Under the pieces are notes generated by a model. That model was not told the DNA's origin. It did no database searches and worked only from the letters and a program-made list of their open reading frames with translations. This document shows positions 2,438-62,345 of a stretch of 64,000 bases of DNA, piece by piece. Source of the DNA: a virus (Duplodnaviria; Caudoviricetes); IMG/VR virus record IMGVR_UViG_3300032233_002382, positions 243,778 to 307,777 of that record, one strand, 5' to 3'. The translations under genes and the position numbers were made by a program. Positions within the stretch are counted from its first letter, which is position 1. Every line of letters begins with the position of its first letter.

Positions 2438-3274
2438 TTAGACTGGAGGCCTATGACCGGGTTTCATCGTTACCCGAGTGTTCGTTGGAGGTATCGTAAT
2501 CAAACTTAATTGATGTAGAACGTAGTCAGTCAATTCCTTTACTGCATCTACATCCCAGACCTGGGTAGTCCGAACGGCAGGATCTTTAACATGGTCATTA
2601 ACAGCCAGAACAATATCATCTTTGTAGATATCCATAATTCCATGCTTCTGTAGCCATTTTTCATACCGATCCATCCATTTATAAACATCAGGTCCGATCA
2701 CTAAGGGCTCACTAACCTTTTTGCTTTCTGGAGGTACCTTTTTCTTTACTTCCTCAATAAAATCTACGATCGTGGGACAAGGGTCTGTTAGGAATTCAAC
2801 ACCATTTTCGACTACGTTCTCTTTTTCATCCAATTCAATAAATAAGTCGGAAACCCAACGATAAGTGTCGATACCGGCAATCGCACCGCCACCCAAAGCT
2901 TTGTTGTAGTATCTCACAAATAGTGCAGCATCAACAATCTGAGTGCCCGCTTTTGTTCTACTAGGTTTAGCGCCAGTCCAGTTTGTGGACGGCTCTTCAG
3001 ATTTATATGATGGGTCACGAGATACCAGAAAATGAATAGTTCCTCTTCTATTAGTATTAACAAGCTCCGACGATTTCATGCCGAATGTGGATGAGTCCCC
3101 TTTAAACGCCTTCGTGCCTTCTGCCGTAACATCTTCCATACTTAAGAAAACACCAGAGCAAGCCTTCATCAGAGCATCAGCTACGCCACGGTTAATCTTG
3201 GTACCCAAAGTACGATCTGTAGCCGTGTTAAGGCTACCAGCAATTCGAGAGGCGATTCTTATAAATATATCCAT
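2438..3274 (-). CDS. hypothetical protein with N-terminal RIASRIA motif
   Basis: 278-aa ORF, AGGAG SD, begins MDIFIRIASRIAGS. Confidence 0.65.
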   Translation of the reverse strand: MDIFIRIASRIAGSLNTATDRTLGTKINRGVADALMKACSGVFLSMEDVTAEGTKAFKGDSSTFGMKSSELVNTNRRGTIHFLVSRDPSYKSEEPSTNWTGAKPSRTKAGTQIVDAALFVRYYNKALGGGAIAGIDTYRWVSDLFIELDEKENVVENGVEFLTDPCPTIVDFIEEVKKKVPPESKKVSEPLVIGPDVYKWMDRYEKWLQKHGIMDIYKDDIVLAVNDHVKDPAVRTTQVWDVDAVKELTDYVLHQLSLITIPPTNTRVTMKPGHRPPV

Positions 3275-3316
3275 TTGGTTCTCCTGTATTGGAAAATAGT
3301 TAAAGAAAGCTTAACA

Positions 3317-14056: not shown

Positions 14057-14722
14057 ATGTATCGTGTAGGCATGAGTGTAGATAAGATAAGGATAGCCAA
14101 CCGGATTGCTAAAGGGAAAACATCAGAATTGGTTGGTCAGGACCCAGACGTAAATCCGGACCTTAAAAATCCAGAGTCAGTTTCTGGACATAACGATCTA
14201 ATAGATATCCCCAACGTACGTCAATATAATGATTTTACGTGCGGATCTGCATGCTTGCTGGCGATACTGGCTTATTATGGGAAATATGACGGTAGAGAAG
14301 ACGACCTCGCAAGCGAATTACGAACAAATCCGATAAACGGAACAAATGCCGATGACATAGTTAAAATCGCAAGAAAGTTCGGCCTAAACGCAGAGCGTAG
14401 AGAAAACGCGGACCTTAAAATAATCGAATCATCACTTAGACGAAAAACGCCGATTATAGTGAACTTTCAAGCCTGGAGCGATTCTGGATCAGACTACAGG
14501 CACAGCAACGAGGATGGTCACTACGCCATAGTAACAGGCATGGACGACGAAAACCTGTATTTTCGAGATCCATCCATGAACGGAAAGATCGGCCGATTAT
14601 CAAAAGCAGATTTTATGCAAAGATGGCATGACGAAGACGCACAATCTGACGTGGAACGGATGTGCATACTATTTCACGATAATATGATCCCTAGAATCGA
14701 AGAGATAGAGTATATAGGATAA
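14057..14722 (+). CDS. C39-like cysteine peptidase with N-terminal RIANRIA motif
   Basis: Q...FTCGSACL (Cys), GHYAIVTG (His) and FRDP (Asp). Confidence 0.85.
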   Translation: MYRVGMSVDKIRIANRIAKGKTSELVGQDPDVNPDLKNPESVSGHNDLIDIPNVRQYNDFTCGSACLLAILAYYGKYDGREDDLASELRTNPINGTNADDIVKIARKFGLNAERRENADLKIIESSLRRKTPIIVNFQAWSDSGSDYRHSNEDGHYAIVTGMDDENLYFRDPSMNGKIGRLSKADFMQRWHDEDAQSDVERMCILFHDNMIPRIEEIEYIG

Positions 14723-15254: not shown

Positions 15255-15470
15255 TTATTCCTCGTGAATTTTAATAGATACTGCTTGATCACACGTCAAT
15301 GACGGATAAGCTCTTCTAGCATAACCGTTCCATGAGGGAATTTCCAATATAGTTAACATATTGTGATCGGGTCTGACAGATGAGTCGACTTTGCAACCAC
15401 AATTTAAGCATTTATAACGGTATAATCCAGCAATACCGGTAGGACCCTTGAAATCCCAGTCATGGCTCAC
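15255..15470 (-). CDS. Cys/His mini-protein, tandem family member 6
   Basis: MSHDW...CLNCG...TCDQ...IHEE. Confidence 0.7.
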   Translation of the reverse strand: MSHDWDFKGPTGIAGLYRYKCLNCGCKVDSSVRPDHNMLTILEIPSWNGYARRAYPSLTCDQAVSIKIHEE

Positions 15471-15742
15471 GAGTTATGAACCTTATAAGATACACATTCT
15501 TCAACAGTATGCATTGATCTAGATTGATCATTCTCGAATTCCATAAAACACTCTGAACACATCGGGTTTATCTTGAATGCACTTCTAATCCCGGCATAGT
15601 CGATGGGATTCTTAATAGGAGAAATCATCCTTTGAAAAAGTTCGTTAGTTTCGTCGGTCGAGAGGCCGTCACGCGATACGCGCTTCACTTGATTATCTAA
15701 GAGAGCTTTGAGAGACGCCATCTTCTTTTCCCTATCGATCAT
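15467..15742 (-). CDS. Cys/His mini-protein, divergent family member 5
   Basis: ...CSEC...HTVEEC...VHNS. Confidence 0.65.
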   Translation of the reverse strand: MIDREKKMASLKALLDNQVKRVSRDGLSTDETNELFQRMISPIKNPIDYAGIRSAFKINPMCSECFMEFENDQSRSMHTVEECVSYKVHNS

Positions 15743-15950
15743 GGACCACTTCCGCTAAGAATTCTTCGCACTTTGGGATAGCTCGATACTCCATCGAACC
15801 GCTATTAAAACACGACATTATTCGACCGACAACAAACCAGTCATAATTCGGACTGGTCCAATAACCGGCCGACGTAAGATAACCACACAACTTGCATTTC
15901 ACTATGACGTTTCCATGAATCTCATGACTTAAAATCCAGTCATGCTCCAT
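15732..15950 (-). CDS. Cys/His mini-protein, family member 4
   Basis: MEHDW...CKLCG...CEE...VHDR; start reassigned to the ATG at 15950. Confidence 0.7.
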   Translation of the reverse strand: MEHDWILSHEIHGNVIVKCKLCGYLTSAGYWTSPNYDWFVVGRIMSCFNSGSMEYRAIPKCEEFLAEVVHDR

Positions 15951-16134
15951 GGATTGTCCCCATGAGTATTTCTTCACAGGTTAGATAAGAAGAATTCTTT
16001 AAAATAGGATCCACAACTAAGAGCCAACCATCCTTAGATGGGTTATATGAACCCACAAAAATATAACCACACATGTCACATTTAAACGTTTTGAGACCAC
16101 CTGATTCCTTGAGTAAAACCCATTCATGAAGCAT
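15940..16134 (-). CDS. Cys/His mini-protein, family member 3
   Basis: MLHEW...CDMCG...TCEE...IHGA. Confidence 0.7.
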   Translation of the reverse strand: MLHEWVLLKESGGLKTFKCDMCGYIFVGSYNPSKDGWLLVVDPILKNSSYLTCEEILMGTIHGA

Positions 16135-16318
16135 AAATATTCCAGATTATTATTTCTTCGCAGGTCATATACTTTAAATCCTGAATCATATGGCTTCCGG
16201 ATAATACTTTCTGGGCAGGAAACGGCATATTCACATCTCTAAACAAAGAACCGCACAAAAGGCATTCGAATTCTTTGTAGTACACACCCGGCGTCCTACA
16301 TTTCCATTTATGAGGCAT
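16124..16318 (-). CDS. Cys/His mini-protein, family member 2
   Basis: MPHKW...CLLCG...TCEE...IYAS. Confidence 0.7.
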   Translation of the reverse strand: MPHKWKCRTPGVYYKEFECLLCGSLFRDVNMPFPAQKVLSGSHMIQDLKYMTCEEIIIWNIYAS

Positions 16319-16495: not shown

Positions 16496-17491
16496 TTACA
16501 CCAAACTAGCACGCGGTCCAGCCCCAGACCAACCACAAAGTTTATGTAACATACGAGCTGCGATGATCGGATCATTTCCATCAGGTGAAGATTCATTTAT
16601 ATCGAATCCTACGATTTTTCGACCCGCATTTACAACTGCCTTTAGAATCGCATTTACCTGCCACCAATTTAGACCACCTGGAACGGGTGTTCCAGTGTTC
16701 GGAACCATCGAAATGTCGAACACATCCATGTCAAAACAAACATAAACATTGGGTGAGAGAGTCGTTGCTATACGTTCCGCAACTATGTCGAATGATTCGT
16801 ATTGAGAGTATTCCCATAAATCTTTAGCAAAAAACGGCGTTATGCGACCTCTCGAATTCATGATCGATAGATACTCGAATTCGGAAAGGTCTCGAACGCC
16901 GACCTGTGTAATCGGACATTTAGTCATTTGCACGACATTGCTCATGACAGCAGCATGCGAAAAATGACATCCGTTATACCTAGTTCGAAGATCGGCATGA
17001 GCATCAAAGTGAAGAACGCTCAAGTCTTTAAAACGCTCAAAATGAGACACGATCGAACCAAGCGAAACCGAATTATCGCCACCCAACACTATAGGCACTT
17101 TTCCCTTCGACAGCCAATAACGAGAGCGATCCCTAATAGCCGAATAGACGGTGTTACAAACCCGATTAAGCTCGTCCAAAGCTCGCGTGTCATTATTCAG
17201 ACTTCTGCGATATAAATCTCGAGCTATTTCATTTGCCTCGACCGCCTCAATAACCGGATCATCGACAAATATATTCCCAACAACATTGTCACTGAATTCC
17301 AGATCAAACGTGTCGACTTGATGAGTCGCCTCAATTACTGCATCCGGCGCAAAAGCAGACCCGAGTCTATAACTTGAAGTCCCGTCAAAAGGCACAGGCA
17401 CAATTACGAACTTTGATTTCTCGATCGTGGATAACGATTCAAAGATAGGCTTAGAATTCACGATGGTAGATAAACGGTGAACTAAGTTCAT
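16496..17491 (-). CDS. speB: agmatinase / ureohydrolase family protein
   Basis: VPFDGTSSYR.G...AP, GGDNS, HFDAHADLR, SHA and FDMDVFD...PNTGTPVPGGL motifs. Confidence 0.85.
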   Translation of the reverse strand: MNLVHRLSTIVNSKPIFESLSTIEKSKFVIVPVPFDGTSSYRLGSAFAPDAVIEATHQVDTFDLEFSDNVVGNIFVDDPVIEAVEANEIARDLYRRSLNNDTRALDELNRVCNTVYSAIRDRSRYWLSKGKVPIVLGGDNSVSLGSIVSHFERFKDLSVLHFDAHADLRTRYNGCHFSHAAVMSNVVQMTKCPITQVGVRDLSEFEYLSIMNSRGRITPFFAKDLWEYSQYESFDIVAERIATTLSPNVYVCFDMDVFDISMVPNTGTPVPGGLNWWQVNAILKAVVNAGRKIVGFDINESSPDGNDPIIAARMLHKLCGWSGAGPRASLV

Positions 17492-17529: not shown

Positions 17530-18312
17530 CTAAAATCTAAACGCCTTCTTGAACGCGTTACCTACTTTTTTACCAGTATCTACAACTGCGTTACCGGCCT
17601 TCTTACCAGTGTCTACAATCGCATTACCAGCTTTTTGTGCCGTGCTGACAACTGTAGACTCCGCTTTCTTCTCAGTAGCTACCACTGCACTACCGGCACT
17701 AGTTAAATCCTTGGCTGCTTGCTTAGTGTCTACAGTTACAGATACGTCGACCTTAGCTCCGACTAGTGCTGCCACATCTCCGCTAACGCCGACAGTGGCT
17801 TTACCGTCCTTGAAGGTAGCTTCGCCACCACCCCCAATACCTACTTGGTCGCCGACAGACACGCCAGCACCAGCCGTAGCTGAAGCCCCTCTCAGCTTCG
17901 CAGTGGCGTCAGCATCTACTCCAACAGCAGTACCAGAGGAGACGCCACCGGAGGCAGCCACACCATGATCTCCAGCAGAAATGGAGGCGTCAACGGTAGT
18001 TCCGGTTACAGCATAAGCATCACCTGAAGCTGATCCGCCAACGCCGTGATAATTTGTGGTCGCATCTACCGTCGCATGTGCCTCGGTGGTGTCAGAATAG
18101 TGCAGGCCAGCATTCACATTATTTCCATCTAAACCGGCCGAAACGCCAGCTTCAGTTCCAGTCTTAGCCGATACGCCTGCCGAAATCGACGCATTATCAT
18201 TGCCGGTGCTAACCCCGGCGGAGGCTTCGATCGTGTTATTAATGGAAGCTGAAGCTGAATTCTTATCGGTAGTCGCGGTAGCTGACTGATTTGCACTTAT
18301 GTTGGTGGACAT
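17530..18312 (-). CDS. Gly/Ala/Ser-rich protein with C-terminal 11-aa amphipathic repeats
   Basis: Alternating beta-like pattern, then AGNAIVDTGKK / AGNAVVDTGKK / VGNAFKK. Confidence 0.6.
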   Translation of the reverse strand: MSTNISANQSATATTDKNSASASINNTIEASAGVSTGNDNASISAGVSAKTGTEAGVSAGLDGNNVNAGLHYSDTTEAHATVDATTNYHGVGGSASGDAYAVTGTTVDASISAGDHGVAASGGVSSGTAVGVDADATAKLRGASATAGAGVSVGDQVGIGGGGEATFKDGKATVGVSGDVAALVGAKVDVSVTVDTKQAAKDLTSAGSAVVATEKKAESTVVSTAQKAGNAIVDTGKKAGNAVVDTGKKVGNAFKKAFRF

Positions 18313-18733: not shown

Positions 18734-19267
18734 CTACATCTCAACATCAGGTAACTTATCGGCTGCCTCAGTAAAGCCATGTTCGACTAGTGTTTCACCA
18801 ATTGCGGGCTTCTCTTTCTCATCATACGAGCACATAAACCGCAGGGTATCCTCTTCTGCCGCGAACTTGGCACTCGATGAGTACTCTTTAAAATCCCTAG
18901 GCGTGAGCTTAACATAGTCGTGAGAAAGAATAGACTCAAGCGCTTTTCCATCGAAGAACGCTTGGTCTGATGACATGCGGGTTTCAGGAGCCATCATCTT
19001 AGGGTCGACATTCATGAAAGCCCAGCCGAAAGGCGTAAGGCTCGCCCATACCGGCTCCATATTGGTCACAAGACTCCCGACAACATCATGTTCTGTATAA
19101 GCTCCACCCTCAAAAATCGCTACCTCAATTCGAGGTTCGCCAGTCAATTCGGATGCAAGTTTACGAAGATGTTTTAAGACTAATTCGCGAGATGGATTTT
19201 TCGAGGCATCTATTTTAGAAGCGATCCGACGTAAAGTAGCAGACAAGTCAGCAGGTTTCATAATCAT
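18734..19267 (-). CDS. hypothetical protein with shared N-terminal LRRIASKIDAS..P.R.LV..LR module
   Basis: N-terminus aligns with ORF 38661..39365. Confidence 0.65.
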   Translation of the reverse strand: MIMKPADLSATLRRIASKIDASKNPSRELVLKHLRKLASELTGEPRIEVAIFEGGAYTEHDVVGSLVTNMEPVWASLTPFGWAFMNVDPKMMAPETRMSSDQAFFDGKALESILSHDYVKLTPRDFKEYSSSAKFAAEEDTLRFMCSYDEKEKPAIGETLVEHGFTEAADKLPDVEM

Positions 19268-19374: not shown

Positions 19375-20262
19375 TTAGCGGGTGACGATCAGACGCACTA
19401 AACCACGCGGATTGTACGCGCCGATACCAAGGTTCTCAAACATTGAGAATCCTATCGTCCGCTCCTCGGGGTTGTCAGCGGAGAGAACCGTGAGCTCAGT
19501 ACGGACCGGAATGCGTCCGAACATCTCAGGCTCGCAGCAGACGTAGACAACGCCAGCGGGAACGATACGGGAGACGATGAACTGAGCGTTCCAGCCCGTC
19601 GCCATCATACCGGTCTTCCACAGGGTCGCCTGGCTCTCGATGTCGAGGACGTCACGGCCGAACTTACGGATGTCGGCATAGTCGACCGCGTTCATGTAAA
19701 CGCGAGCGACGCGGAGGTCCTGACGCTCGATCTCGGCGAACGCGTCCGCGAGGACGGCCGGAGAGATCGGCGCGACAACCGGGATGTCCGGGTTCGTTCC
19801 ACCGGGGAGTGAATCGAAGCCGTTGGCCGCGATCGCATCCATGATGGAGAACACGCGATCGTCCTCAGCAGCCTGGATCTGGGCCTTGCCGAGATCCTGC
19901 ATACGCTTGAGTAGATCGTACCGGCGCTCCTTGACCTGGGTCAGGGGAGCCTTCGGTAGAGCCGCGATCTCGAAGAGCGGGAAGATAACGCGGCGGGGCT
20001 TGGCAACCGCCGTGATGGACTCGCCCTCTTCACCGATCACGTACGCGACAACGTCCGGATCCTTGTCGTAGATCGGGAGAGCGCCGTCCGGAAGCTGCTC
20101 GACCAAGAAGGTCTTGCGGCCAACGGACGAGTAGTCGCGGCGCTCGCGCAGCGGCTGGATCATGCTGGCAGCGAGGTGACGACGACCAGCGGCGGTGCTA
20201 ATGTACTTATCGACAACCTGCTCCTTGAGCGCGTTGTCTACAACCTGAACGCCAAATGACAT
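19375..20262 (-). CDS. major capsid protein (HK97-like fold)
   Basis: Position after protease, scaffold and decoration genes; pattern GR..LA.SM..PLR.R.DY..VGRK...V..LP.GA...YD; strong GC3 codon bias. Confidence 0.8.
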   Translation of the reverse strand: MSFGVQVVDNALKEQVVDKYISTAAGRRHLAASMIQPLRERRDYSSVGRKTFLVEQLPDGALPIYDKDPDVVAYVIGEEGESITAVAKPRRVIFPLFEIAALPKAPLTQVKERRYDLLKRMQDLGKAQIQAAEDDRVFSIMDAIAANGFDSLPGGTNPDIPVVAPISPAVLADAFAEIERQDLRVARVYMNAVDYADIRKFGRDVLDIESQATLWKTGMMATGWNAQFIVSRIVPAGVVYVCCEPEMFGRIPVRTELTVLSADNPEERTIGFSMFENLGIGAYNPRGLVRLIVTR

Positions 20263-20297
20263 GATATATCTCCTTCCTTAGTATTTGATGATGATGC

Positions 20298-20984
20298 TTA
20301 GATGAAGCTAAGCATCAAGAACATCTCGGTTGAGGTGGCGTTCGGGGGAGCAAGGACGAGACCTAGACGGGTGCAATCAGCCTCGGTAGCGGTTCCGCCA
20401 CCAGCGTTGATCGCCTGAGCCTCGTAGGTGTCTTCCCAAACGTTGGTCACTAGACCGTTGACCGAAGCGTAGAGACGGTCGCCGACGTTGTAGGTGAGAT
20501 CGTTGCCGACCACACCGCCGCCCGTCGTGGTCTGGCGCTCGGTCTCATAGATCTTGAGACCGACCGAACCACCACGGAGGAACGGACCCTTACCAGACGC
20601 CACACCAGGGGTGTTCTCATAGGCGTTGCCGAGAGCGTCATTGATGAACAGGCCGACCGGCTTCATGCCGGAAACAACCTGAGCCGTACCACCCGCTAAC
20701 GTGAGCGAGTAGTAAACGCCACCGACCTTGGTGGGACCGCCGACGAGGTTCTCACCTTCGTCGTTGCGGGTAAAGGCGACGGAGCCGCCGAGTACGCCCT
20801 TCTTCACCGTAGCGGGAAGGGTGGTTGATACGGCTGCAGCAGCCGTTACAACCGGAGGATTGCTCTGCGTAAACGCATCCGCCGTTAAGGCAGGAATCGA
20901 ATCCTTCACAACGCTGTAAAGGATACGAAGAGCGCCACTGCTTAGGGTGAAATCACCCGATGACTGACCACCGATCGAGCCCAT
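20298..20984 (-). CDS. putative head decoration / minor capsid protein
   Basis: Directly upstream of the capsid gene, same codon bias; beta-rich G/T composition. Confidence 0.55.
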   Translation of the reverse strand: MGSIGGQSSGDFTLSSGALRILYSVVKDSIPALTADAFTQSNPPVVTAAAAVSTTLPATVKKGVLGGSVAFTRNDEGENLVGGPTKVGGVYYSLTLAGGTAQVVSGMKPVGLFINDALGNAYENTPGVASGKGPFLRGGSVGLKIYETERQTTTGGGVVGNDLTYNVGDRLYASVNGLVTNVWEDTYEAQAINAGGGTATEADCTRLGLVLAPPNATSTEMFLMLSFI

Positions 20985-21032
20985 TTTTAACCTCCAGTTC
21001 GGACGTTACTTGAAATTGTTCATTAGGAGTTC

Positions 21033-21083: not shown

Positions 21084-21152
21084 TACTTCTTCATTCACAA
21101 CTTCGTTCACATCGACTGAAAAATTGGTTTAGGTATCCGTATCTAGTCTCTA

Positions 21153-21195: not shown

Positions 21196-21205
21196 CCACT
21201 TTCAA

Positions 21206-22557: not shown

Positions 22558-24111
22558 CTAAATAGTAGCTATACTTGCAATCTTGCCCTTCCAGGACAAG
22601 AAATTTAGTTCACGCTGATTCAAAGGTCTACCGGCTTTGGTTGTACAAGCAATCAAGAATGCTTTCTCGCTTTTGTAATTGCTCATAGGTCCAACGGAGA
22701 TAGCCAATTTATATAATCTAGTATCGTAATTCTTTCCCTTGACTCTATCCTCAATCCATGAAAGGACTAACAGATCCTTGGGGGTCAAAGAGGCCTTTTT
22801 AATAGCTTTGAGACCGCCCTTGTGGACGATATCATGAGCTTTAACCGCCCAGTCAGCGATTTTTGGATTTTTAACTACCGCAGACACTTTGGATTTAAAC
22901 GACGCGCCTCTCATCATCGAGTCGTTCATACTCGTTAAAGCAACCGGAGCTGCTTCTACGACACTTCCAACATCTTCTGGCTTAGGACCGATTTTGTCCG
23001 CAAGCTTCTCAACCATGATTGTTAGAAGTTGTTCTTGGACTTTGTCTAATAGCGCATCGATTTTATCGCTAGAGTCACTCGTCGGTTCAGATGACTGACT
23101 ATCGGAAGGAGCCTGATCAGACTGTGCTTGTTCTTCTGGAGCAGAGTCTTGAGAGTCACTATCGTCCGAAAGTAGCGATTCTAGGTCGTCGCCTCCTTGA
23201 TCATCCTGCGCAGCATACTTAATAGAAGCAGCTTTCTTAATTCCATCTAAGGGAATGATGCTTCGCGCAGAATTAAGTTCGATCGCATCGTTCATTTTCG
23301 CTGCGACTTGAATTTGATCAGCGTTGAGGAAATTCCGACGCACTGCGCCCCTAAAAGCCGGATTTTTTACCCAACTCGCTTCGATAAATTGATTCGAATT
23401 TGGCACGCTTACATGACCAATTAACTCGGCGATCTTATTCTTCGCCCCAGATTCATCCAAGTATTCCGTGTGCTTGCCTTCATACTGGATGCAAGGGCAC
23501 AGCTGCGAATCATCTGCCGCCACATTTCCGCACTTTGAGCATATCGTAAATAACGATATGCAGCCCATGCTTAAGCCAGTAATGCCGCCCGAAAGAATAT
23601 CACTTACTAACTGCTGATGCTTGCGGTCTGTCGCTACCAAAATATCAATGTAACAGGTGTTGCCGAGATCTCTAGCTATGGCGTCGACAATGAACCCCTT
23701 CGAAAGCTCAGGAAGCTGAATGTGCTCTAGATAGTTATGAGCACCGATGAAAGTACGATAAGTAGATAGCAGGAGCGAACGCTCCCAAGCATCACCATTA
23801 TTGTTGATTATGTCGCTGCATTCAGGCTTAATTCTAAAATCAGGGTAGCGAACATCAATTTGGACGCCCTTGTTCATGTGGCGTCCGGTCTTACTTCCCT
23901 TAGGCTGATACGTATCGACAGAAGCAACTATGGTGGCGTGACTGAGTAGGTATTGCTTGGGGTCACACTTGCGGAGGGTGGTCTTAGCAATACGATGGAC
24001 ATGATCTTTAGGTATCGCGCCTTCATTCTGACCACGAATTACTTCCATCCAGTTATCAAAATGAATGTCTTTCTGGCTAACTATAGCTTTAGCATAACGT
24101 CTAGTGGCCAT
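22558..24111 (-). CDS. prohead maturation protease with Cys-rich insertion
   Basis: N.LEH (His), LSMGC (Ser) and FIEASWVKNPAF.GA (E-x-S-x-V-x-x-PA) motifs typical of HK97/assemblin-type prohead proteases; CSKC...CPC insert. Confidence 0.72.
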   Translation of the reverse strand: MATRRYAKAIVSQKDIHFDNWMEVIRGQNEGAIPKDHVHRIAKTTLRKCDPKQYLLSHATIVASVDTYQPKGSKTGRHMNKGVQIDVRYPDFRIKPECSDIINNNGDAWERSLLLSTYRTFIGAHNYLEHIQLPELSKGFIVDAIARDLGNTCYIDILVATDRKHQQLVSDILSGGITGLSMGCISLFTICSKCGNVAADDSQLCPCIQYEGKHTEYLDESGAKNKIAELIGHVSVPNSNQFIEASWVKNPAFRGAVRRNFLNADQIQVAAKMNDAIELNSARSIIPLDGIKKAASIKYAAQDDQGGDDLESLLSDDSDSQDSAPEEQAQSDQAPSDSQSSEPTSDSSDKIDALLDKVQEQLLTIMVEKLADKIGPKPEDVGSVVEAAPVALTSMNDSMMRGASFKSKVSAVVKNPKIADWAVKAHDIVHKGGLKAIKKASLTPKDLLVLSWIEDRVKGKNYDTRLYKLAISVGPMSNYKSEKAFLIACTTKAGRPLNQRELNFLSWKGKIASIATI

Positions 24112-25248: not shown

Positions 25249-25737
25249 TTAATCAGCCCAGGTCTTGGCGCTGGCGGTAGACTTCTTACCAGCCCCAGCC
25301 CAAGAAGGCTGCTTGACCGTCTTACCGCCATTAGAGAGCGGAGACTGATCGCGAACACTGAACTCAGGACGGTCAGTCACGATCGAAGAACGATCCGCGT
25401 CAAAAGTCGGAATATCCTCTGACCAGCGAGCGCCATGACCGGCGTTGTGCATATAGGTCTCGTCCGCTTCAACGTGAAGAGGCTTAACCGGATTCTCAAA
25501 CGTCGCCATGTATTTCTCATCGGCGTCGTGCTGAAGCACCTTGGCCTTGCGGCGGAGGAAGCTCTCGCGACCAAACGCGGTGGCCTCAAACCGATCCGCA
25601 AAGGAATCTAGCTGCGTCAACATCGAAGAAGCGACACGGCCATCCAACTTGCCAGCCGCTACGAGCTTCTCGATCCGAGTAGCAGCGGCGTCGAGATTTG
25701 AAAGTACTTTATTAGCAGTGTCCTTAGGAATGGCCAT
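25249..25737 (-). CDS. hypothetical virion-associated protein
   Basis: 162 aa, GGAGA SD, GC3-biased like the capsid genes. Confidence 0.6.
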   Translation of the reverse strand: MAIPKDTANKVLSNLDAAATRIEKLVAAGKLDGRVASSMLTQLDSFADRFEATAFGRESFLRRKAKVLQHDADEKYMATFENPVKPLHVEADETYMHNAGHGARWSEDIPTFDADRSSIVTDRPEFSVRDQSPLSNGGKTVKQPSWAGAGKKSTASAKTWAD

Positions 25738-25778: not shown

Positions 25779-28193
25779 TTACCAGGAGAGATCGGAAGAG
25801 TCAACCGAGGCCTTATGCTTCTTTCCAGCCTTCTTTGAAGCCTTCTTCTTATCGTCTGACCTAGAAGAAGATGACTCCACCTTCTTGGGAGATGCCTTCT
25901 TACCGGACTTCTTCTTAACCGCCTTCTTCTTAGCCGCGATTATCGGCATAAGAACAGAACGGCTACCAGGATTCTCGAAGGCAACACGCACCAGCGTGTT
26001 CACGTCCACCGCTACCATATCCTCGGAAGCAGTGCGAATTAGATCGACATTGAACTGACCAATAAGCGAAGCTAAACGAGCAGCAGCTTCCGGGTTCTTC
26101 GCCTTAATTTCCTGAGCGATCTTAAGCATACCACCAATTGTTTCATTCATGGTTGACGCCTTCTTTGGCTTTCCAGCCGTGGTTAAGAGTGTTTCGGACA
26201 GTAAATCGGTTTTGTAATCACCCAACCGATTCAACAACATATTATAGGTAGGAGCGTCTATTTTGCTTTGGTAAGCCGAATTATCGGCTGTCGAAATAGC
26301 AAGATCTAACGCCGCCCGAATTTGGACATCAGGAGCTGAACCATTCCAGTTATTTTGGAGCCAGCCCCCTTTAAGAAATTCTTTAGCCGAAGCAATAATA
26401 GCATCGTAATGATCCTTATTAAGGTAACGCTTATCTAAGAAGGACCAACCAGAATAGGGCCCGTCTGGACCACCCTGGGTCAAAACACCATGATATGTCG
26501 CTGTTCTAGTCATCCTAGATTCCAACGGTTTATTAGAAGATGATAATTTAAGGGATTTGATCCGAGAAGAATTCGGAAACTGCTTTTTAAGTTTTTCGAG
26601 CATAGTTTGCTCGAGCAAAGAAGAGTCGACGATATCTACTTTTCTTGCCGCAGAATCCAATTCTTCCATAGCTTTAATCCAACTATCAAGCGCGTCATCT
26701 ATATCGTAGTATTTAGGACGCCTAGCTAGATCCTCCAAGTCTACATCACTGCTCTGCTCCACCGCTTTTTTAAATTCGTCAGTGGTTTGCTTGATGCTGT
26801 ATAATTCTAGCATCAAGCCATAAACGTCTTTCGTAAATTTATCTAATACGGTTTTAAAATCTTTAGAAGGCAACTCGGCATTAGCGCGAAGATACTCGTA
26901 AAGTTTAAGGCTCACAGCCCAAGATTCGAAATTGGGTATATCTTTGTCGATTTCAAAGTCTGGATCTGAACTTTTTCCAAGTATAAGTTCGGCCAGAGAT
27001 TTTTCAACTTCGGAACTATCCTGAGATTTCTTAACCAGCGAACCCAGAGCCTGAACAGATCTAGGTAGTGATTTCTGAACGTTCTCCACGTTACGACGAA
27101 GTGATTCAATGTAACCCGCTCGGGCGCCCCACGGTATTTCGCCGGTCGCCATATTCCAATTACGTTCTAAAGATTTTAGAATACTATATATGTTAGAGCC
27201 TGGCGACTGTTCGCTTAGGCGCTTGAATGCCTTGAATTGATCGTCTATGTATTTTCGTACTGATTTTTCCTGATCAACGGATTTTTCAGAAGGCTTTTCA
27301 GCGGGCGGGGAATATAACTTCTTGGTGATAGACTGTGTCTGATCCGGGTACTTCTTTATTAAGGACTGTGCCGCATCATTTGTAACCTTGAAGTATTTTT
27401 TACCATCTTGGTCAACAGTAGGGGGCGCAAATTCCTTAAGAAATTCGAATTCAGGCAGTACGGGGATTAATGGAGTTCCGGACGGGTGAGTTAAAACTGC
27501 ACGCACCACTTTCTCGATAGAGTCATACAAAGCCTGGTCGACTGCATTCACATCGGCAGGACGTTCATTCAAGGTTTTCACAATAACGGACCACATCGGT
27601 GCGTCGACAAGAAATACTTTATTTCCAGATTCCTTGGTTTTAACTTCTAGACCTATATCGTTTTCGAGAAACTTCATCTGATCGTGATATGGATATTCTA
27701 ATACTGTATCTATATTTGATTTAAACCATTCCTCTAATGATATATCCTTAGGCAACTTATTGCGAGCAATAAGGTTACTTTCCATCTTTTCTAAGATGTT
27801 GTAATTTATTGCAGATACTTTAAAATAAGAAGACGCTTTTTTGCTAAAGGCAAATTCAGGAAAAGAATTATTGAAGTCTTCGACAAAATTAGAGGCAAGT
27901 GTCGGACTTACTGAGTTTAATAAAGAATATAGTTTATCGCGATCTTTCAAAGCTTCAGATGCCAACCGAAAGGCGATCGCAGTTGCGCTATACTTAGGGC
28001 TTAGACTTAAATCTTTATCGAATTCTTTCTCAGAAGTATCGATCCGACGACGACGCTGGAAACTGCGTTTTTCTCTCTTCGGCTTATACTTTCGATCACC
28101 ACGTGGCTTTCGGCCGCTAGGCATAAGACGGCGGACCTCGGCGTCCTCCTTATCAGATTCAGTCACCTTTTTACCTGATAAGAAATACCGCAT
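25779..28193 (-). CDS. large hypothetical protein with several (K/R)xAS motifs
   Basis: 804-aa ORF next to the portal gene. Confidence 0.6.
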   Translation of the reverse strand: MRYFLSGKKVTESDKEDAEVRRLMPSGRKPRGDRKYKPKREKRSFQRRRRIDTSEKEFDKDLSLSPKYSATAIAFRLASEALKDRDKLYSLLNSVSPTLASNFVEDFNNSFPEFAFSKKASSYFKVSAINYNILEKMESNLIARNKLPKDISLEEWFKSNIDTVLEYPYHDQMKFLENDIGLEVKTKESGNKVFLVDAPMWSVIVKTLNERPADVNAVDQALYDSIEKVVRAVLTHPSGTPLIPVLPEFEFLKEFAPPTVDQDGKKYFKVTNDAAQSLIKKYPDQTQSITKKLYSPPAEKPSEKSVDQEKSVRKYIDDQFKAFKRLSEQSPGSNIYSILKSLERNWNMATGEIPWGARAGYIESLRRNVENVQKSLPRSVQALGSLVKKSQDSSEVEKSLAELILGKSSDPDFEIDKDIPNFESWAVSLKLYEYLRANAELPSKDFKTVLDKFTKDVYGLMLELYSIKQTTDEFKKAVEQSSDVDLEDLARRPKYYDIDDALDSWIKAMEELDSAARKVDIVDSSLLEQTMLEKLKKQFPNSSRIKSLKLSSSNKPLESRMTRTATYHGVLTQGGPDGPYSGWSFLDKRYLNKDHYDAIIASAKEFLKGGWLQNNWNGSAPDVQIRAALDLAISTADNSAYQSKIDAPTYNMLLNRLGDYKTDLLSETLLTTAGKPKKASTMNETIGGMLKIAQEIKAKNPEAAARLASLIGQFNVDLIRTASEDMVAVDVNTLVRVAFENPGSRSVLMPIIAAKKKAVKKKSGKKASPKKVESSSSRSDDKKKASKKAGKKHKASVDSSDLSW

Positions 28194-28231: not shown

Positions 28232-30004
28232 TTACCCCTCTTCCTCTTTACCGAACCGATCACCCTTCTTATCGGTGCGCTTTAACCCGGCGTTGGCAAA
28301 TATCTTATCCAACACATCTGTCTTCTCGGCTGCTTCATCGCCAGCCTTAGTGAGTACACCCTTAAGAAATTCGTTGAAAGTCGAATCATTCGGGGTAAAC
28401 ATATCACGTTTGAGCTGATCCAAGGTATCATCCGGATCTATATTAAGAAGTTCAAGGATAAAGGAAATCGGTAAAGAGCCCTTTTGATATATATTGAACA
28501 TGTAGTCTTGGAGCTCTGAATTATCCCGTAAGGCAAGTCGCGTGAACTGCAACTTTGGATACAATAATCGCCGGTTACCGTATTCGTCCTCTTCCCAGAA
28601 CCCCTTCTTCTCGGCCACTGGCTTAAATATATACTCTTCGACCAGTTCAGCGATTTGTTCGCGATACAGCAGGTACATAGTGTTCATAACGTCTAAATGA
28701 ATACGCTCACCGCCGTACGAATTTTCGCCAGTCAGCATACCCTCAGTAATACGAAGACCAATGAACAGCATTTTATTGGTAGCTTCATACTCGCCGCTCA
28801 AGTCCAGCAAACGATCTCTAGAACCGATCTCATCCCAGTGCACTTCAAAGTTCGTTACGATGGTGAAATCGGGGTCAATGATCGCTTGGTCGACCTGATC
28901 TCTAAGCGATTCTACGTCTACCTCTGACATCTTGTCGGCCCATACAACGCGCTTCGGGGTCATTGCACGAGATGCAATGGAGGTCTGAGCCTGACGGAGC
29001 TTATCCTGGTAAACCAAAGTCCGGAGGCAACGTTCGAGAAGAGAAATTCCGCGTTCGTCGTATGCGCTCTTCTTATGACTTAGGTGATAGCAAAAAGAGC
29101 TACACAAGAAATCATCATATGGACTGGTATTCAAAGGTATAGGCTGACCACTCAGTAAGTTCTCACGGATCTGCTCTGGAATGTCATTTGCGATCTTAGC
29201 CGACTCCGGGTCATTCTGCTCAGACGCTTTTAAAACTAATAGACGATCCTTTTCAGATGGAATCAGCTCCATCTTACCTTTGTTCGTGTATTGGAAGATT
29301 TCTAGCTTAACTTGCTCAGGCGGCAGAATCTGTATTCTCTGCCAACCCTGATACTTCTCCGCCACGAATTTACGAATATTAGAGACGCGGTCTGAATCAG
29401 GCTTCGGAGTAAGTTTGGTCACCTGACGTCTAGATGTATTACCAGCCCAGTCGACTTCACCCACTTCTTCGTGCTCGACATGATTAAGCAATTCAGGAGG
29501 AATAGAATCCGACAAATCATGATCTTCTACGAAGAGGAACACATTTCCATGTAGCCAATACTCATGCGTGGCATCATATAAGGACTGAAACAGCCGAACG
29601 CGAGAACACATTTCCTCGAAGAAATGAAGGATCTGCTTATTCCGACGTAAATCTTTACCTTTAGGTAAAGCCAGTCGGATCTTACTCATAGGTACATCAG
29701 TGTGAAAATCGATCGCGGCGCCTATGATAGGATGAGTGTTATACCAAAACCTATATAATTCCCGCTTTTCGCGCTCAGACTGAGGTAATTCGAGGAAGTC
29801 AGTAGATAACTGAGGACTATAGAAAGCGGAGTCACCAGATTTTATGGCTCCACCTTGACCATTTCCGAAGTTAGACCCATATGAAGCCACTCGTATGCTC
29901 TGCTTTTGCTCAGCACGAGCAATTTTCTCCAGCTTTGTGAGCTTTTGCTTAGTGGGCTTCTGCTCATCAACTTTATTTACAGGAAGCGATTTTTCGTCCG
30001 ACAT
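28232..30004 (-). CDS. portal protein
   Basis: 590 aa, mostly helical; YRFWYNTHPIIGAAIDFH pattern; located between terminase and head genes. Confidence 0.7.
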   Translation of the reverse strand: MSDEKSLPVNKVDEQKPTKQKLTKLEKIARAEQKQSIRVASYGSNFGNGQGGAIKSGDSAFYSPQLSTDFLELPQSEREKRELYRFWYNTHPIIGAAIDFHTDVPMSKIRLALPKGKDLRRNKQILHFFEEMCSRVRLFQSLYDATHEYWLHGNVFLFVEDHDLSDSIPPELLNHVEHEEVGEVDWAGNTSRRQVTKLTPKPDSDRVSNIRKFVAEKYQGWQRIQILPPEQVKLEIFQYTNKGKMELIPSEKDRLLVLKASEQNDPESAKIANDIPEQIRENLLSGQPIPLNTSPYDDFLCSSFCYHLSHKKSAYDERGISLLERCLRTLVYQDKLRQAQTSIASRAMTPKRVVWADKMSEVDVESLRDQVDQAIIDPDFTIVTNFEVHWDEIGSRDRLLDLSGEYEATNKMLFIGLRITEGMLTGENSYGGERIHLDVMNTMYLLYREQIAELVEEYIFKPVAEKKGFWEEDEYGNRRLLYPKLQFTRLALRDNSELQDYMFNIYQKGSLPISFILELLNIDPDDTLDQLKRDMFTPNDSTFNEFLKGVLTKAGDEAAEKTDVLDKIFANAGLKRTDKKGDRFGKEEEG

Positions 30005-36142: not shown

Positions 36143-37233
36143 GCCGTATTTGGCTTTGTCGCTTTTACTGGTTTCATGGGATTATCCGGCTCACTGTGCT
36201 TCATCATCATGTCTATCTCTTCAGATGATAAGCCTGGTGTATAAACCGGCATAAGTTTGTCGTTAGACGCCCCAGGAAGCCAGCTATAATAATCACTGGC
36301 AGTCTTCAGGCTGGTCGAATCACCTACCGTGGGCCTATCGTAACCACCAACACCATCTGAAGTTACGTCCTCGTAAAGGTAGTCTTCAGTGATGAACCCA
36401 TCTAAATTAGGATCGTCGCTAGGAAGCGCATCTGGACCATTGAAGAACCCATAGGGAGACTCACCCGGACCGACGTGAGTAATACGTGGACCAGGAAGGT
36501 TCTCGACTGGCACAGAAGAATTACCGCCAGCTAAACGATCGCTAGCCAGTCGAGCTCCTTGGGAAGATAGATACTTAGAGATAGCAGCGTCGTAGATGGA
36601 TTCGGAAGTTTGTCGTTTAGAAGCCTGCTGGGTGAATCCTCCAGCAGAGGCGGAGGATTCATTTCCGGAACCAGACCCCTCCGGCTGACCAAAATCAGCA
36701 GGAGTGGGGTTTAAGGTCTCCGGAGTTAATTCCATAAATTCTTGCTCATCCGGTTCAGCAGTTTGGTAAGCCTGCTCCACGAATCCTTCAGGGTTTGTCT
36801 TAACTGCCTGAGCATCTTGAACCAGAGTCTTTGTCTCGGGCGCTTCTTCTAGGTTCCAATGATCGGCACCGACCTCATCATATAAGGTGTCGGTGAATGA
36901 GGAGATGATCTCAGCAGCCTGACCGAGCGCACCTCGCATATCCTTAACGGTCTGGATGTAGCCCCGGCCCCCTAGTAGTCCATCAGGACTAAAAGAAGAA
37001 GAAGGCATTTTTGAAAGAAGTCGAAGCGCTGAAGAAGCATAGCTATGTGAGCGCTGAGCAGCCCATAAAATTTTCGCAAGGTTTTTAAGGCTATCTCGAG
37101 ACCATTTGAACCCCTCGACGCGTATATCACGTCGTACCGGACCTTGGTCACGGATGAACTCGATCTTACCGGCGGTTCTTATGGTGCCGGAAGTCGCGAT
37201 CCTATGAGCGATGTCTTTGTGGAAAAAGCTCAT
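36121..37233 (-). CDS. hypothetical acidic protein with N-terminal IAHRIA motif
   Basis: MSFFHKDIAHRIATSGTIRTAG. Confidence 0.6.
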   Translation of the reverse strand: MSFFHKDIAHRIATSGTIRTAGKIEFIRDQGPVRRDIRVEGFKWSRDSLKNLAKILWAAQRSHSYASSALRLLSKMPSSSFSPDGLLGGRGYIQTVKDMRGALGQAAEIISSFTDTLYDEVGADHWNLEEAPETKTLVQDAQAVKTNPEGFVEQAYQTAEPDEQEFMELTPETLNPTPADFGQPEGSGSGNESSASAGGFTQQASKRQTSESIYDAAISKYLSSQGARLASDRLAGGNSSVPVENLPGPRITHVGPGESPYGFFNGPDALPSDDPNLDGFITEDYLYEDVTSDGVGGYDRPTVGDSTSLKTASDYYSWLPGASNDKLMPVYTPGLSSEEIDMMMKHSEPDNPMKPVKATKPNTAWLWDVD

Positions 37234-38660: not shown

Positions 38661-39365
38661 TTACATCATTGAAATCGAGCGGAGTGCTTCTACAACGGCT
38701 TGTTCGGCGGTTAAATCACCACCCTCAGCGTCATTCGGGTCGGTTAGCGGAAGTGACTGATAATAATAGTTGCTATCGTCGCCACCTGCCCCGCGCCACA
38801 CTGCTACCTCTCCTAATATTTCTATGGCGTTTCTAGGACTCGCTTTAAGATGCCTGATCATATTGTTTACAAGTGCTTTACCCTTGCGACCAGTACCGTC
38901 ACCAACGTGCTCATCATTCGTGAGTATGACATCGAACCCAGATCCATCTGTTTCAAGGGTCGTGTCTTCAGAAACGCTGGAAGCATTTACACAATCAACG
39001 TAGTCTTTGGATGAATATATGGCATTAAGCATAGGTTCTTCTACAGTAAACATATCGAAATCCAAGTCCTCCCTAAGGTCATCTAAATTAAAACCGCTAA
39101 CGTGCTCTGATTCCATATCATGACCGGCTATTTCTAAGGAAATCTTCCGAACAAATGGCTGACCACGAAACGTTCCAGTAACATGGAAATCTGGATACGC
39201 GTCAGAACCCCCAACTCTCTGAACAGCAGTAATCACCACATCTGAGGCAAGCGCAGCAACCATTCGACGCAGATCAGAAAGCACCAGATCGCGCCTTGGA
39301 GTTTTGGAGGATTCCAAGGCGGCTGCAATGCGCTTCAGTCCTAATGCTAATTCTTTAGGTGACAT
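38661..39365 (-). CDS. hypothetical protein with shared N-terminal LKRIAAALESS..P.R.LV..LR module
   Basis: N-terminus aligns with ORF 18734..19267; AAGGAG SD. Confidence 0.65.
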   Translation of the reverse strand: MSPKELALGLKRIAAALESSKTPRRDLVLSDLRRMVAALASDVVITAVQRVGGSDAYPDFHVTGTFRGQPFVRKISLEIAGHDMESEHVSGFNLDDLREDLDFDMFTVEEPMLNAIYSSKDYVDCVNASSVSEDTTLETDGSGFDVILTNDEHVGDGTGRKGKALVNNMIRHLKASPRNAIEILGEVAVWRGAGGDDSNYYYQSLPLTDPNDAEGGDLTAEQAVVEALRSISMM

Positions 39366-59237: not shown

Positions 59238-59574
59238 TTATATTCTCCTCACTAAACAATACCGAAAGCGCGACACGAGCAGCTTCAAACACACCTTGAG
59301 GATAAGTCGAAAATAAAGGCTGCGAACCTAAACGTTCTACTGCTAATAACATCTTCGAATAGTCAGAATAAGGTATTTTCCGTAAGACAAGACCATTCGA
59401 CAAGCTTATTGTAACCATATCTAGCCCTGAATATGAAAGATCGGGCTGAACCTTGACCTTAGAAAACTTCATGGCTACTACAATTGAAGCATATGTATCA
59501 ATGGCACGATCATAAGTCAAAGGTCTCGTGAATTGACCTTTATACTTAAAATCACGACTAGTCCCATCCATCAC
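59230..59574 (-). CDS. hypothetical protein
   Basis: 114-aa coupled ORF. Confidence 0.5.
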   Translation of the reverse strand: MMDGTSRDFKYKGQFTRPLTYDRAIDTYASIVVAMKFSKVKVQPDLSYSGLDMVTISLSNGLVLRKIPYSDYSKMLLAVERLGSQPLFSTYPQGVFEAARVALSVLFSEENING

Positions 59575-62345
59575 ATCAGCCTTAGTGCGATTTTATATAT
59601 ATTGAACCAAGGCCTACATGTCGCAGTACTTCGTACATAAGCGGCGACGCGCTTGAATTTACCATCCACTATTTCGAATCCGACAGCTTTTGCTAAGCCT
59701 AACTTTTGTTCCTGGGTGAGCGAGGTCGGCAGTGGCGGTATTTTTGCGATTTCAGCTCTACTGAGTCCATCCGATTTCATTAGAAGCGCTATCTGTTCAT
59801 CCCAGTAATCCTCGAGCGCTTCTTGCAAAGCCTCCAATTCAGATAATTCCTCATCAGAGTAACCACGAGGCTTAAGTGTAAGGAATCCGTCACGCTGAAG
59901 CCTAGATAAAGCACGGATATCATCATAGGCATCTGCAGTTTGCGGGTTATACTGGGCAGTACTCTGGTCTTTAACAGCTTTAAAGGCTCTTGTATTGAGT
60001 GCCTTTAATTGTTCCTTGCTTATGGGTTCCGGCCACGGCTTGATGGAACGAACCACATCTCTGGTTAAAGAGAAGGGAGCTCGAACCAGCTTATCCGAAA
60101 GGACATCGAAGTACTCATCCAGAACATCGCCTGAAGCCGCCGTTTGCAGATAGTTCGATTCGAACAATTTAACTAACATGGCGGCATCAATTAATTCTTG
60201 AGGCAGAATCTCCGCCAATTCGGCATCACTAAGGTATGAAGCCTTTATATCATCTATGTTCCAGTCGTCAGGGTCTTGTTTAGCAAGATTCTCGTAGTAC
60301 GAACGTTGAGCAGGAGTTAAGTCACCCCAAGCCTTGCCAACCGGAGATAACGCCTTACCGGTCTCATCCTTAACTTTCTCGAATTCGAGTTTTTCAGCAG
60401 GAGTAAGATCGCGGAATTTCTGTATATAGAGATATCTGTTGGCTTTAAGCTGCTTCTTGTGTTTTGCCGGGAGCTGGAAATAAGTGTAAATGTCCTTCGG
60501 GAACTCTCTAGTCAAGACGGGAAGCAATTCGGGAAATTTAGATTGGATTTCAGGATCTTTCACATAAGCACTGAGGCTAGTAAGATCTTCTCGGCTAGCA
60601 GTACCGTCAATGACCTTGGCAAGCACCTTTGATAGACGATCCGCCTTAGAAGAATCTACGCCACGATCCTCACCTAAAGCCTCAAATAGTATTTCTACGG
60701 CTTCCATGAACTGCTTGAAAGGCTCTGAATTCTTTATACGATTAAGCGATCGTTTATTCTTTTGGAATTCCGTAGTAAAACTATCCGCTTTTTCTTCTTC
60801 CTTTACACGAGTTTTAGACTGCTGACTGACGTCAGCTTGGTATATATCCTTTAGAAGATCAATTTCTTGATCCGTGAAAGCCGACTCGATCGCCTTTTGC
60901 AGTTTCTTGCGCATATCACCAAGACGACCCGGCCGATCAACGACCGCCTGAGCCGCCATTGACAACTCGATCCCATCCGGATCATTCCAGTTCGCCATTA
61001 CAAGTGGGGTCTGACCTTGAGCCACAGTGGAAGGATCGTTTGAATATAATTTTATGAAATTCTTAAACTCGTCTATATTACTGAAATTATATCCGAACTT
61101 TTCTCCGGCCTTAACCATCATAAGGTCTAAGAAGTCCTGATTCTTTTTCATATTTCGATCGATACGAGTCGCAACGTCGCCTTTATCGTCTTCAAAAATC
61201 TGTTCCCATAATAATTTATAAGCCAAACCTAAATCGGCAATGTTCTTATCGATCTTAGGTAACGCGCTCTTGAATGCTTCTTGTACACGCTTAGAGGCAA
61301 AGGTATCGGATTCAAGAGTTTTTAAGAAATCTTCATCAACCTCAGCCGAAGGAATACGACTCTCACCGGGCTCAAGAACGTCACCACCCTCGTCACGACG
61401 CTCAAAGATAGACATCGGCTCGACGCGCCGCATAGTGATAGGTGACCGGCTAGGCTCGATGTTCTCAAATGTAATCGGTCGACCCTCTTCATCGGTCTTA
61501 TTACTGTCCGACAGTTTCTTTTCAATATACTCAACACGTTCTTGATCAGATGGCTTCCATTCTGGTGTACCCTTCTTGCCCTTTAAATAGGCAAGTTCTC
61601 CAACGAGATCATTTACTTTCTGCTTGTTCTTTCGCAAAGAATCGCGAGCCGCGTTCATCAAGAATTTCTTAAACACGTTTAAAGCTACATCAGGACTTTT
61701 GGCCGAAGGCATTTCAGGATTTTCAGTAAATGACCAGCCATTTTCGCGGAATCTCTTTAATAGGTAGACTATTTTATCCTGGATGATATCGCGAGCAGCA
61801 TCATCACTACTTTTAAGAACGCGACTTACTAAAGCGATACATTCACGACCAATTTGGGTTGCAGATTTCGATAGGGAAACGCCAGGGAAACTGAAATTTA
61901 ACAAAGCAATGATCGACTGACCTACGAAATTGGCGTTCACCTTATCGATCGACTCTAGCTTGCTTGAATTTTGCTCGATCGCCTTTATTTCTTTATCATT
62001 TAAAGATTCGACTTCAGGTGCTTCTTCTTTCTTTTTCTTCTTGCGACCAGTAGAGGCTTCTTCTTTTTCCTTAACGACTTTCTTCTTAACTTCTGGCGCA
62101 ACATCTACTGTGAGAATAGGCTCAGTCGGAACATCGGCGTTATTGGCCAGCAGGAATGCTTTGATCGCATCCATACGCTTAACTTCAGCTGGCGATATAC
62201 TACCCTGCTGCTGCTTTCCTAAAAGTATGGCATATTGCTTTGCAAAATTATCAGTAGCAGAAGCCGTCCTTAAACGGCCAAACGCTACGAGAAATCGACG
62301 GGTATCGGCAGATAATATATGCATGGCCATCCTCAGATGGAACAT
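59571..62345 (-). CDS. large protein with an ECF sigma region-2-like segment and (K/R)xAS / KIALRL motifs
   Basis: LVSRVLKSSDDAARDIIQDKIVYLL...F...FKKFLMNAARDSLRKNKQK. Confidence 0.55.
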   Translation of the reverse strand: MFHLRMAMHILSADTRRFLVAFGRLRTASATDNFAKQYAILLGKQQQGSISPAEVKRMDAIKAFLLANNADVPTEPILTVDVAPEVKKKVVKEKEEASTGRKKKKKEEAPEVESLNDKEIKAIEQNSSKLESIDKVNANFVGQSIIALLNFSFPGVSLSKSATQIGRECIALVSRVLKSSDDAARDIIQDKIVYLLKRFRENGWSFTENPEMPSAKSPDVALNVFKKFLMNAARDSLRKNKQKVNDLVGELAYLKGKKGTPEWKPSDQERVEYIEKKLSDSNKTDEEGRPITFENIEPSRSPITMRRVEPMSIFERRDEGGDVLEPGESRIPSAEVDEDFLKTLESDTFASKRVQEAFKSALPKIDKNIADLGLAYKLLWEQIFEDDKGDVATRIDRNMKKNQDFLDLMMVKAGEKFGYNFSNIDEFKNFIKLYSNDPSTVAQGQTPLVMANWNDPDGIELSMAAQAVVDRPGRLGDMRKKLQKAIESAFTDQEIDLLKDIYQADVSQQSKTRVKEEEKADSFTTEFQKNKRSLNRIKNSEPFKQFMEAVEILFEALGEDRGVDSSKADRLSKVLAKVIDGTASREDLTSLSAYVKDPEIQSKFPELLPVLTREFPKDIYTYFQLPAKHKKQLKANRYLYIQKFRDLTPAEKLEFEKVKDETGKALSPVGKAWGDLTPAQRSYYENLAKQDPDDWNIDDIKASYLSDAELAEILPQELIDAAMLVKLFESNYLQTAASGDVLDEYFDVLSDKLVRAPFSLTRDVVRSIKPWPEPISKEQLKALNTRAFKAVKDQSTAQYNPQTADAYDDIRALSRLQRDGFLTLKPRGYSDEELSELEALQEALEDYWDEQIALLMKSDGLSRAEIAKIPPLPTSLTQEQKLGLAKAVGFEIVDGKFKRVAAYVRSTATCRPWFNIYKIALRLM

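Follow-up and report, generated by a model that had tools for sequence, protein, structure and literature searches.

Portable N-terminal peptides on unrelated proteins of a huge phage: two tag families and their possible use in loading the phage head

Introduction

Why do mostly unrelated proteins of one phage begin with nearly the same short peptide? The question is raised by the final 64 kb (hereafter the window) of a single viral contig of 307,777 bp (IMG/VR record IMGVR_UViG_3300032233_002382), which belongs to a huge phage and is about 72% complete according to CheckV. A preliminary description of the window had noticed a short motif, (I/V)A-x-(R/K)-(I/V/L)A, near one terminus of eight unrelated proteins, and had proposed that it is a portable tag by which varied enzymes are loaded into the head for injection. 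In phage T4, a capsid-targeting sequence (CTS) of 10–19 residues is found at the N-terminus of IPI, IPII, IPIII and Alt (Mullaney and Black 1996; PMC9026906), and N-terminal peptides of 10–30 residues are sufficient for encapsidation in T4 and P1 (PMC9026906, PMC9024508). Here we report that the motif marks two families of portable N-terminal tags, and we weigh whether these direct proteins into the head.

The contig (G000) was compared with five complete relatives that have a capsid protein of 88% identity or more (G001–G004 and G006), and with a sister lineage, LR745208. Further comparison genomes were G005 (619 kb), Tunturiibacter phage Tunturi_5 and Bacillus phage G (NC_023719).

Results and Discussion

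Two peptide families at the N-terminus

To obtain a chance expectation, the residues of each window protein were shuffled within that protein. The pattern IA.RIA occurred three times in the window against 0.02 expected, each time inside the first 25 residues, and RIA was found seven times within the first 25 residues of the window proteins against 0.33 expected. Counts far exceeded the shuffled background, and the recurrence reported in the preliminary description is real. It had been described as one motif, however, and here two distinct N-terminal families had been merged. All eight quoted strings were located in the open reading frames (ORFs) to which they had been assigned, and five are family members by profile: RIASRIA (ORF 2438-3274), RIANRIA (C39 peptidase) and DIAHRIA (36121-37233) belong to class 1, and RRIASKI (18734-19267) and KRIAAAL (38661-39365) to class 2. 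The other three did not hold. VAKKVA is internal, at residue 57 of the partial ORF 2-982, as is AIAFRLA, at residue 72 of an 804-aa protein, and neither was matched by either profile; KIALRL, at the C-terminal end of a 924-aa protein, scored under the family range. As had been observed, the tag is absent from replication and metabolic enzymes. The strict pattern also matches two enzymes, ribonucleotide reductase and one of the arginase family, in internal helices; we take these matches as chance.

The class-1 tag is an N-terminal helix of 12–14 residues with the consensus M-(polar)-(L/F/I/V)-x-x-I-A-x-R-I-(A/S)-x-(S/G). A profile recovered 14 class-1 proteins at E<3e-5, all matched at the start Met and followed by a clear gap in score, and a matrix scan added two, giving 16 N-terminal bearers on the contig, three of them in the window. 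In all 14 profile matches the core of the tag begins 5–9 residues past the start Met, and the tag is over by residue 14. The conserved positions are 3, 6, 7, 10 and 11, which is the pattern of an amphipathic helix. The class-2 tag is an N-terminal module of 40 residues, consisting of a helix, an SK-x-PS turn and a second helix, and is carried by at least 10 proteins of the contig, two of which are encoded in the window. Class 1 and helix 1 of class 2 align weakly (hhalign E=4e-4, probability 34%), and class 1 is a separate, shorter tag. A motif-free scan for N-terminally enriched patterns returned class 1 and class 2 as the top signals of the genome.

The class-1 motif was also seen at the extreme C-terminus of two small proteins outside the window, at genome positions 17843-18061 (plus strand, ending ...LISIASRISNP) and 215380-215769 (minus strand, ending ...FVKIARRISRS). 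The second adjoins class-2-tagged genes between the sheath and tube genes.

The tags are exchanged among unrelated proteins

Taken together, about 26 mostly unrelated proteins of the contig start with one of the two conserved peptides. Among the 14 class-1 proteins first identified, only three resemble each other past residue 45, and these are encoded by tandem GNAT-like genes. When the clade including the relatives was clustered by protein body, 29 class-1 proteins fell into 26 clusters and 31 class-2 proteins into 28. The codons of the motif vary synonymously, indicating that selection acts on the peptide.

Both tags are present in the five complete relatives, where almost every significant match begins at model positions 1–3, at the start codon. 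The class-2 profile (A2) matched 10 proteins of the contig and 5–8 in each relative. The cargo varies from genome to genome and the tags are kept. The sole conserved bearer is a 370-aa protein of the virion module with 230 homologs, most of which have the tag just before an invariant (V/I)RTAG(K/R)IEF block; in a comparison of 120 homologs, most had kept it. Its ortholog in LR745208 starts with a different N-terminal peptide, and homology restarts exactly past the tag. Thus the tags exist as N-terminal, portable, peptide-selected and lineage-specific elements, and they are portable modules rather than a trace of paralogy. That a portable tag sits on unrelated proteins, as had been proposed, is well supported by the unrelated bodies, the selection on the peptide, the fixed position at Met, the turnover of cargo and the swap of tags on one ortholog.

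The tagged proteins are small and mostly acidic (median pI 5.0–5.8), and include a papain-like C39-family peptidase and GNAT-like acetyltransferases. The Pfam domain of the C39 peptidase starts at residue 49, leaving a linker of about 30 residues after the tag. A similar arrangement was predicted for the 370-aa protein, in which the tag is modelled as a free helix (residues 3–14), with about 30 residues of linker between it and a confident helical core. A peptide-pattern search among viral contigs gave no close relative of this protein, and comparison of its fold with the PDB returned nothing beyond generic helical hairpins. Residues 1–40 of the tagged 278-aa protein matched only themselves in a word-based search, the tag being too short for a database of that size.

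Tags of unrelated sequence in other lineages

N-terminal tag families were found in three lineages, namely the present clade, LR745208 and the cultured phage G, and their sequences are unrelated. In LR745208, the tag MTTLRSKLIRLAHxNPALRPxLLPLLKEA starts at least nine ORFs (loci L147–L171), with no detectable homology to class 2. One internal copy of the LR745208 tag was also seen, in a 588-aa ORF (LR745208.1, 431502-433268). In phage G (loci L219–L243), MKRLIKK(S/A) starts 16 ORFs belonging to 14 unrelated body clusters and including gp13, gp17, gp38 and gp53. A search of the literature turned up no account of large families of portable tags in huge phages, nor of the MKRLIKK(S/A) tag of phage G.

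Tagged genes among head genes

The head module of the contig lies on the minus strand and was assigned by PHROG matches and by synteny with Tunturi_5 and phage G (Table 1). Downstream of the capsid gene lies a hypervariable island in which tagged genes collect, and the first gene there is that of the class-2-tagged 177-aa protein. G003 has a tandem array of at least seven class-1 genes 0.6–3 kb past its capsid gene, and LR745208 has one tagged gene between its scaffold and decoration genes. In phage G, the tagged gp13 gene comes just before the portal gene and the tagged gp17 gene just before the protease gene (gp19); furthermore, five of the 16 tagged genes of this phage are no more than 20 kb away from the capsid gene, compared with 9.3% of all genes (p=0.013). 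A k-mer analysis found no promoter motif shared by the regions upstream of tagged genes and head genes.

A tag-like core in the tail of the prohead protease

The predicted prohead protease of the contig ends in WKGKIASIATI, within a confidently predicted last helix (residues 499–513). In about 50 tag-bearing relatives this tail has the form WKG(R/K)IAS(L/V/I)xxF, whereas in the sister lineage that lacks the class-1 and class-2 tags it reads EKGRLYALGRS. The LR745208 protease ends in ...ARTLIRLASLLSAHK; LIRLA occurs only eight times in the 151,007 residues encoded by that genome, and six of these are in tags. In a test defined beforehand, every protein was scored by the longest stretch that its final 25 residues share exactly with the tags of the same genome. 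The protease tail stood out in the contig, from which the idea came (KIAS, p=0.039), and independently in LR745208 (LIRLA, p=0.0056).

The core also recurs in untagged proteins of the head module, where (R/K)(I/V)AS was observed six times against 0.59 expected (p=2e-4), in a test defined after the data had been seen. Tag-bearing relatives keep both the site of the conserved 162-aa protein and an R-(T/V/I)-A-S island of the scaffold-like protein; in the sister lineage the former is lost and the latter changed. The start of the 162-aa protein had looked by eye like a class-1 helix, and this candidate was rejected when profile comparison gave a probability below 2%.

Two other features of the protease were observed. 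Residues 184–207 hold an invariant cluster of Cys residues (C184, C191, C194, C205 and C207), which suggests a zinc-binding element inserted into the protease domain. In many relatives the protease ORF measures 900–1350 aa instead of about 520, and similarity stops past about residue 185 (L069:4997-7753, L024:3848-7885, L022, L031, L042 and others), suggesting a large insertion, possibly an intein.

A tentative model of capsid loading

Based on the position of tagged genes, the protease-tail core in two of three lineages, the (R/K)(I/V)AS sites of untagged head-module proteins and the one conserved bearer in the virion module, we tentatively favor, with a confidence that falls somewhat short of even, the view that the tags are portable address labels that load cargo into the head in the manner of a CTS. 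The destination that had been proposed in the preliminary description is to this extent indirectly supported. We infer from the genes the destination, the receptor and any removal of the tag. The class-1 amphipathic helix or the class-2 helix-turn-helix, flexibly linked to its cargo, would dock on a component of the prohead interior; our best guess for the docking site is the one that would recruit the prohead protease through its C-terminal helix. A fast-changing set of cargo proteins would then be delivered to the next host along with the DNA.

Several observations weigh against capsid loading. Tagged genes of the contig are mostly far from the head module, and those within 20 kb of the capsid gene are not significantly enriched either there (5/26, p=0.17) or in LR745208 (2/9, p=0.14). 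Such clustering as exists could reflect where accessory genes are tolerated, and three class-2 bearers sit in the tail module between sheath and tube. G005 and Tunturi_5 have related heads and no recognizable N-terminal tag family. The cargo is mostly acidic, unlike the basic internal proteins of T4, and no conserved cleavage motif follows the tag, including the T4-type (L/I)-x-E.

The protease tail has weaknesses of its own. The match is short (4–5 residues), and a position-weight score places the tail of the contig's protease only 132nd of 95,009 positions. The predefined test fails in phage G (p=0.65). Because of this low rank and the failure in phage G, the link is suggestive and not strong. 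In phage G, the protease and the portal protein likewise have K-I-A-S in their tails, so that the core may be an old feature of head assembly, either a docking or a protease site, rather than a mimic of the tag. In addition, the 517-aa protease has no sequence match to any solved structure, and its catalytic domain was modelled with low confidence. Prediction of a complex of the scaffold and capsid proteins with the tag region gave a score of 0.01, which is under the mark and uninformative either way.

Alternative explanations

A possible alternative, which we consider doubtful, is that the tags dock to a hub other than the capsid, such as a structure built by the phage in the cytoplasm, a chaperone, an AAA+ translocase, some target in the host, or else the tail or baseplate, so that effectors would be gathered and not packaged. 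Any common partner would fit the portability, terminal position and lineage specificity of the tags. The scatter of the contig's tagged genes far from the head genes, the three class-2 bearers encoded between sheath and tube, each matching the class-2 profile from residue 1, and the presence of the motif at the very end of two proteins, on the C-terminal side, all agree with such a hub. However, it leaves unexplained why tagged genes are interleaved in the head operons of three lineages and why the tag core recurs in the protease tail in two, and no candidate hub was identified.

An improbable explanation is that the motif is a signal for processing or turnover, either a site for the prohead protease or an N-degron read by a host or phage protease, and sets the maturation or lifetime of a protein and not its location. 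Herpesvirus assemblin is distantly related to some prohead proteases and cuts between A and S, which accords with this explanation, as does the enrichment of (R/K)(I/V)AS in head-module proteins (the N-terminal region of the portal protein, the C-terminal island of the scaffold and the protease tail). The motif in the protease and portal tails of phage G is likewise what a conserved cleavage specificity would give. Yet the tags are conserved as amphipathic helices, and both tag and protease tail are predicted to be helical, whereas protease substrates bind in an extended form. The S is the least conserved residue of the core, and no such motif occurs in the phage G or LR745208 tags. The removal of nine residues from 16 unrelated proteins would also have no obvious purpose unless the peptide targets them as well.

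It is very unlikely that the C39-family peptidase of the phage reads the tag as a leader peptide, in the way that C39 domains read the double-glycine leaders of bacteriocins. A C39/C39_2 peptidase is encoded in the window and is itself tagged, and GS, SG, GT or GA follows several tags of the contig. However, PF13529 was found in the contig and in control genomes but not above the cut-off in G001–G004, where both tags are present; most tags of the relatives have no Gly after the motif, and the hydrophobic spacing departs from the double-glycine consensus. For lack of co-occurrence this peptidase was ruled out as the reader of the tags, which lack the double-glycine end in most cases; it is itself cargo. 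Finally, that the resemblance is due to chance or paralogy is scarcely credible, and is refuted for the five true instances: Ala/Ile/Arg-rich helices are common, the three tandem GNAT-like genes are true paralogs and three of the eight strings first quoted are chance matches, but the counts exceed the shuffled expectation 10- to 100-fold, every true match lies at the start Met on otherwise unrelated bodies, the tags recur in relatives on other cargo, and a scan that presupposes no motif recovers them.

Comparison with known targeting signals

As in the case of the T4 CTS, the tags are short portable peptides at the extreme N-terminus of unrelated, poorly conserved proteins, and the T4 bearer Alt, which modifies host proteins, parallels the GNAT-like and peptidase cargo described here. 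The present tags have no sequence likeness to the CTS and no (L/I)-x-E or other conserved residue after them. They also differ in the type of head (phage-G/HK97-type), in the number of bearers (about 26 against four), in having two tag types and in their acidic rather than basic cargo, and their packaging and cleavage are putative. Encapsulin cargo-loading peptides likewise are short and terminal and load varied enzymes via the inner face of an HK97-fold shell; they are, however, usually C-terminal and extended, with another consensus, whereas the present tag is predicted to be helical and its capsid binding is putative.

The protease and scaffold of herpesviruses have a common C-terminal capsid-binding peptide. 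Duda et al. are said to have described in 2013 (cited in PMC7411985) a C-terminal capsid-targeting tail on gp4, the prohead protease of HK97. In these systems and in phage SPN3US, a terminal peptide recruits a protein other than the shell to the procapsid, and in two of the lineages compared here the protease tail has a core of 4–5 residues in common with the cargo tags. The known tails serve only proteins of assembly; here dozens of accessory proteins bear the core at their other end, and the match is short and is missing in phage G. Reuse of a protease-tail core on accessory proteins is not known to have been described before. For the SPN3US protease (gp245), a C-terminal propeptide was proposed to direct this enzyme into the prohead (PMC7411985). 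In P1, an N-terminal segment of fewer than 30 residues of DarB, an anti-defence effector, sends a heterologous protein into the capsid (PMC9024508). P1 has one known bearer, and its loading needs other Dar proteins, whereas a whole family carries the signal here.

More broadly, huge phages of the phage G type may use a label system that varies between lineages, in which a terminal helix copying the protease-docking helix is placed on dozens of exchanged effectors for capsid loading and injection, with (K/R)IASRIA, TLRSKLIRLAH and MKRLIKKS as its dialects; we put this forward as a speculation that is less probable than not by a clear margin. If it is true, a list of the proteins that huge phages inject, probably factors of anti-defence and host takeover, could be drawn up from sequence for hundreds of uncultured genomes, and a principle derived from four T4 proteins and one P1 protein would extend to families of 16–26 proteins per genome. 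Phage G is the only cultured megaphage, and its analogous tag on 16 proteins brings the idea within reach of a test. A portable peptide this short, if it directs encapsidation, would also be useful for protein delivery by phages.

The head module and its surroundings

The coordinates of the tags and head genes are collected in Table 1. The region upstream of the capsid gene is conserved, and the region downstream is the hypervariable island. Related capsid proteins were found on 483 IMG/VR contigs, several of which measure 360–620 kb. The conserved island of the scaffold-like protein lies about 30 residues from the C-terminus, its RTAS being encoded by nt 21293-21304.

Table 1. Tags and head-module features of the window (window coordinates)
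Feature	Position	Strand	Remarks
Class-1 tag MDIFIRIASRIAGS	3233..3274	-	On 278-aa protein (2438-3274); body without homolog in the five complete relatives
Class-1 tag MSVDKIRIANRIAK	14072..14113	+	On C39-like cysteine peptidase (14057-14722, likely start 14072)
Class-2 two-helix module	19127..19261	-	On 177-aa protein (18734-19267), immediately downstream of the major capsid gene
Major capsid protein	19375..20262	-	HK97-type, phrog_2522; 77–95% identical across 483 IMG/VR contigs
Decoration-like protein, 228 aa		-	Head module
Scaffold-like protein, 444 aa	21206..22540	-	Likely start 22519; conserved island R-T-A-S..GAKKLG
Protease C-terminal tail WKGKIASIATI	22561..22593	-	In confident last helix (499–513), predicted
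Prohead protease, 517 aa	22558-24111	-	Matches phrog_18299, head maturation protease
240-aa protein		-	Head module; listed after the 162-aa protein
Head-module protein, 162 aa, conserved	25249..25737	-	(R/K)(V/L/T)A(S/A) site at residues 34–37; no tag of its own
804-aa protein	25779..28193	-	In the position of the annotated 'DNA ejection protein' of Tunturi_5
Portal protein	28232..30004	-	Single (R/K)(I/V)AS site, residue 38
Large terminase	30586-32520	-	Head module (PHROG, synteny)
Class-1 tag MSFFHKDIAHRIAT	37192..37233	-	On conserved 370-aa virion-module protein (36121-37233)
Class-2 module (first 45 residues)	39231-39365	-	On 234-aa protein (38661..39365); matches in relatives limited to residues 1–48

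When the scaffold and protease genes (window 21206-24111) were used as a DNA query against a phage collection, zero matches were obtained. The G+C content of the scaffold/protease region (window 20001-24000) is 52%, compared with 41–47% in the rest of the window.

Other genes were noted past the capsid gene. The hypervariable island includes an arginase/agmatinase-family enzyme (window 16496-17491, minus strand; PF00491, E=3e-53). Two genes downstream of the capsid gene is that of a highly repetitive 260-aa protein rich in Ala, Gly, Ser and Val (17530-18312, minus strand), which ends in three KK(A/V)GNA repeats and is without a homolog in the relatives. Five small ORFs (15255-16318, minus strand) encode small Cys-rich proteins with a common C-terminal peptide, ...TC(E/D)(E/Q)xxxxx(V/I)Hxx.

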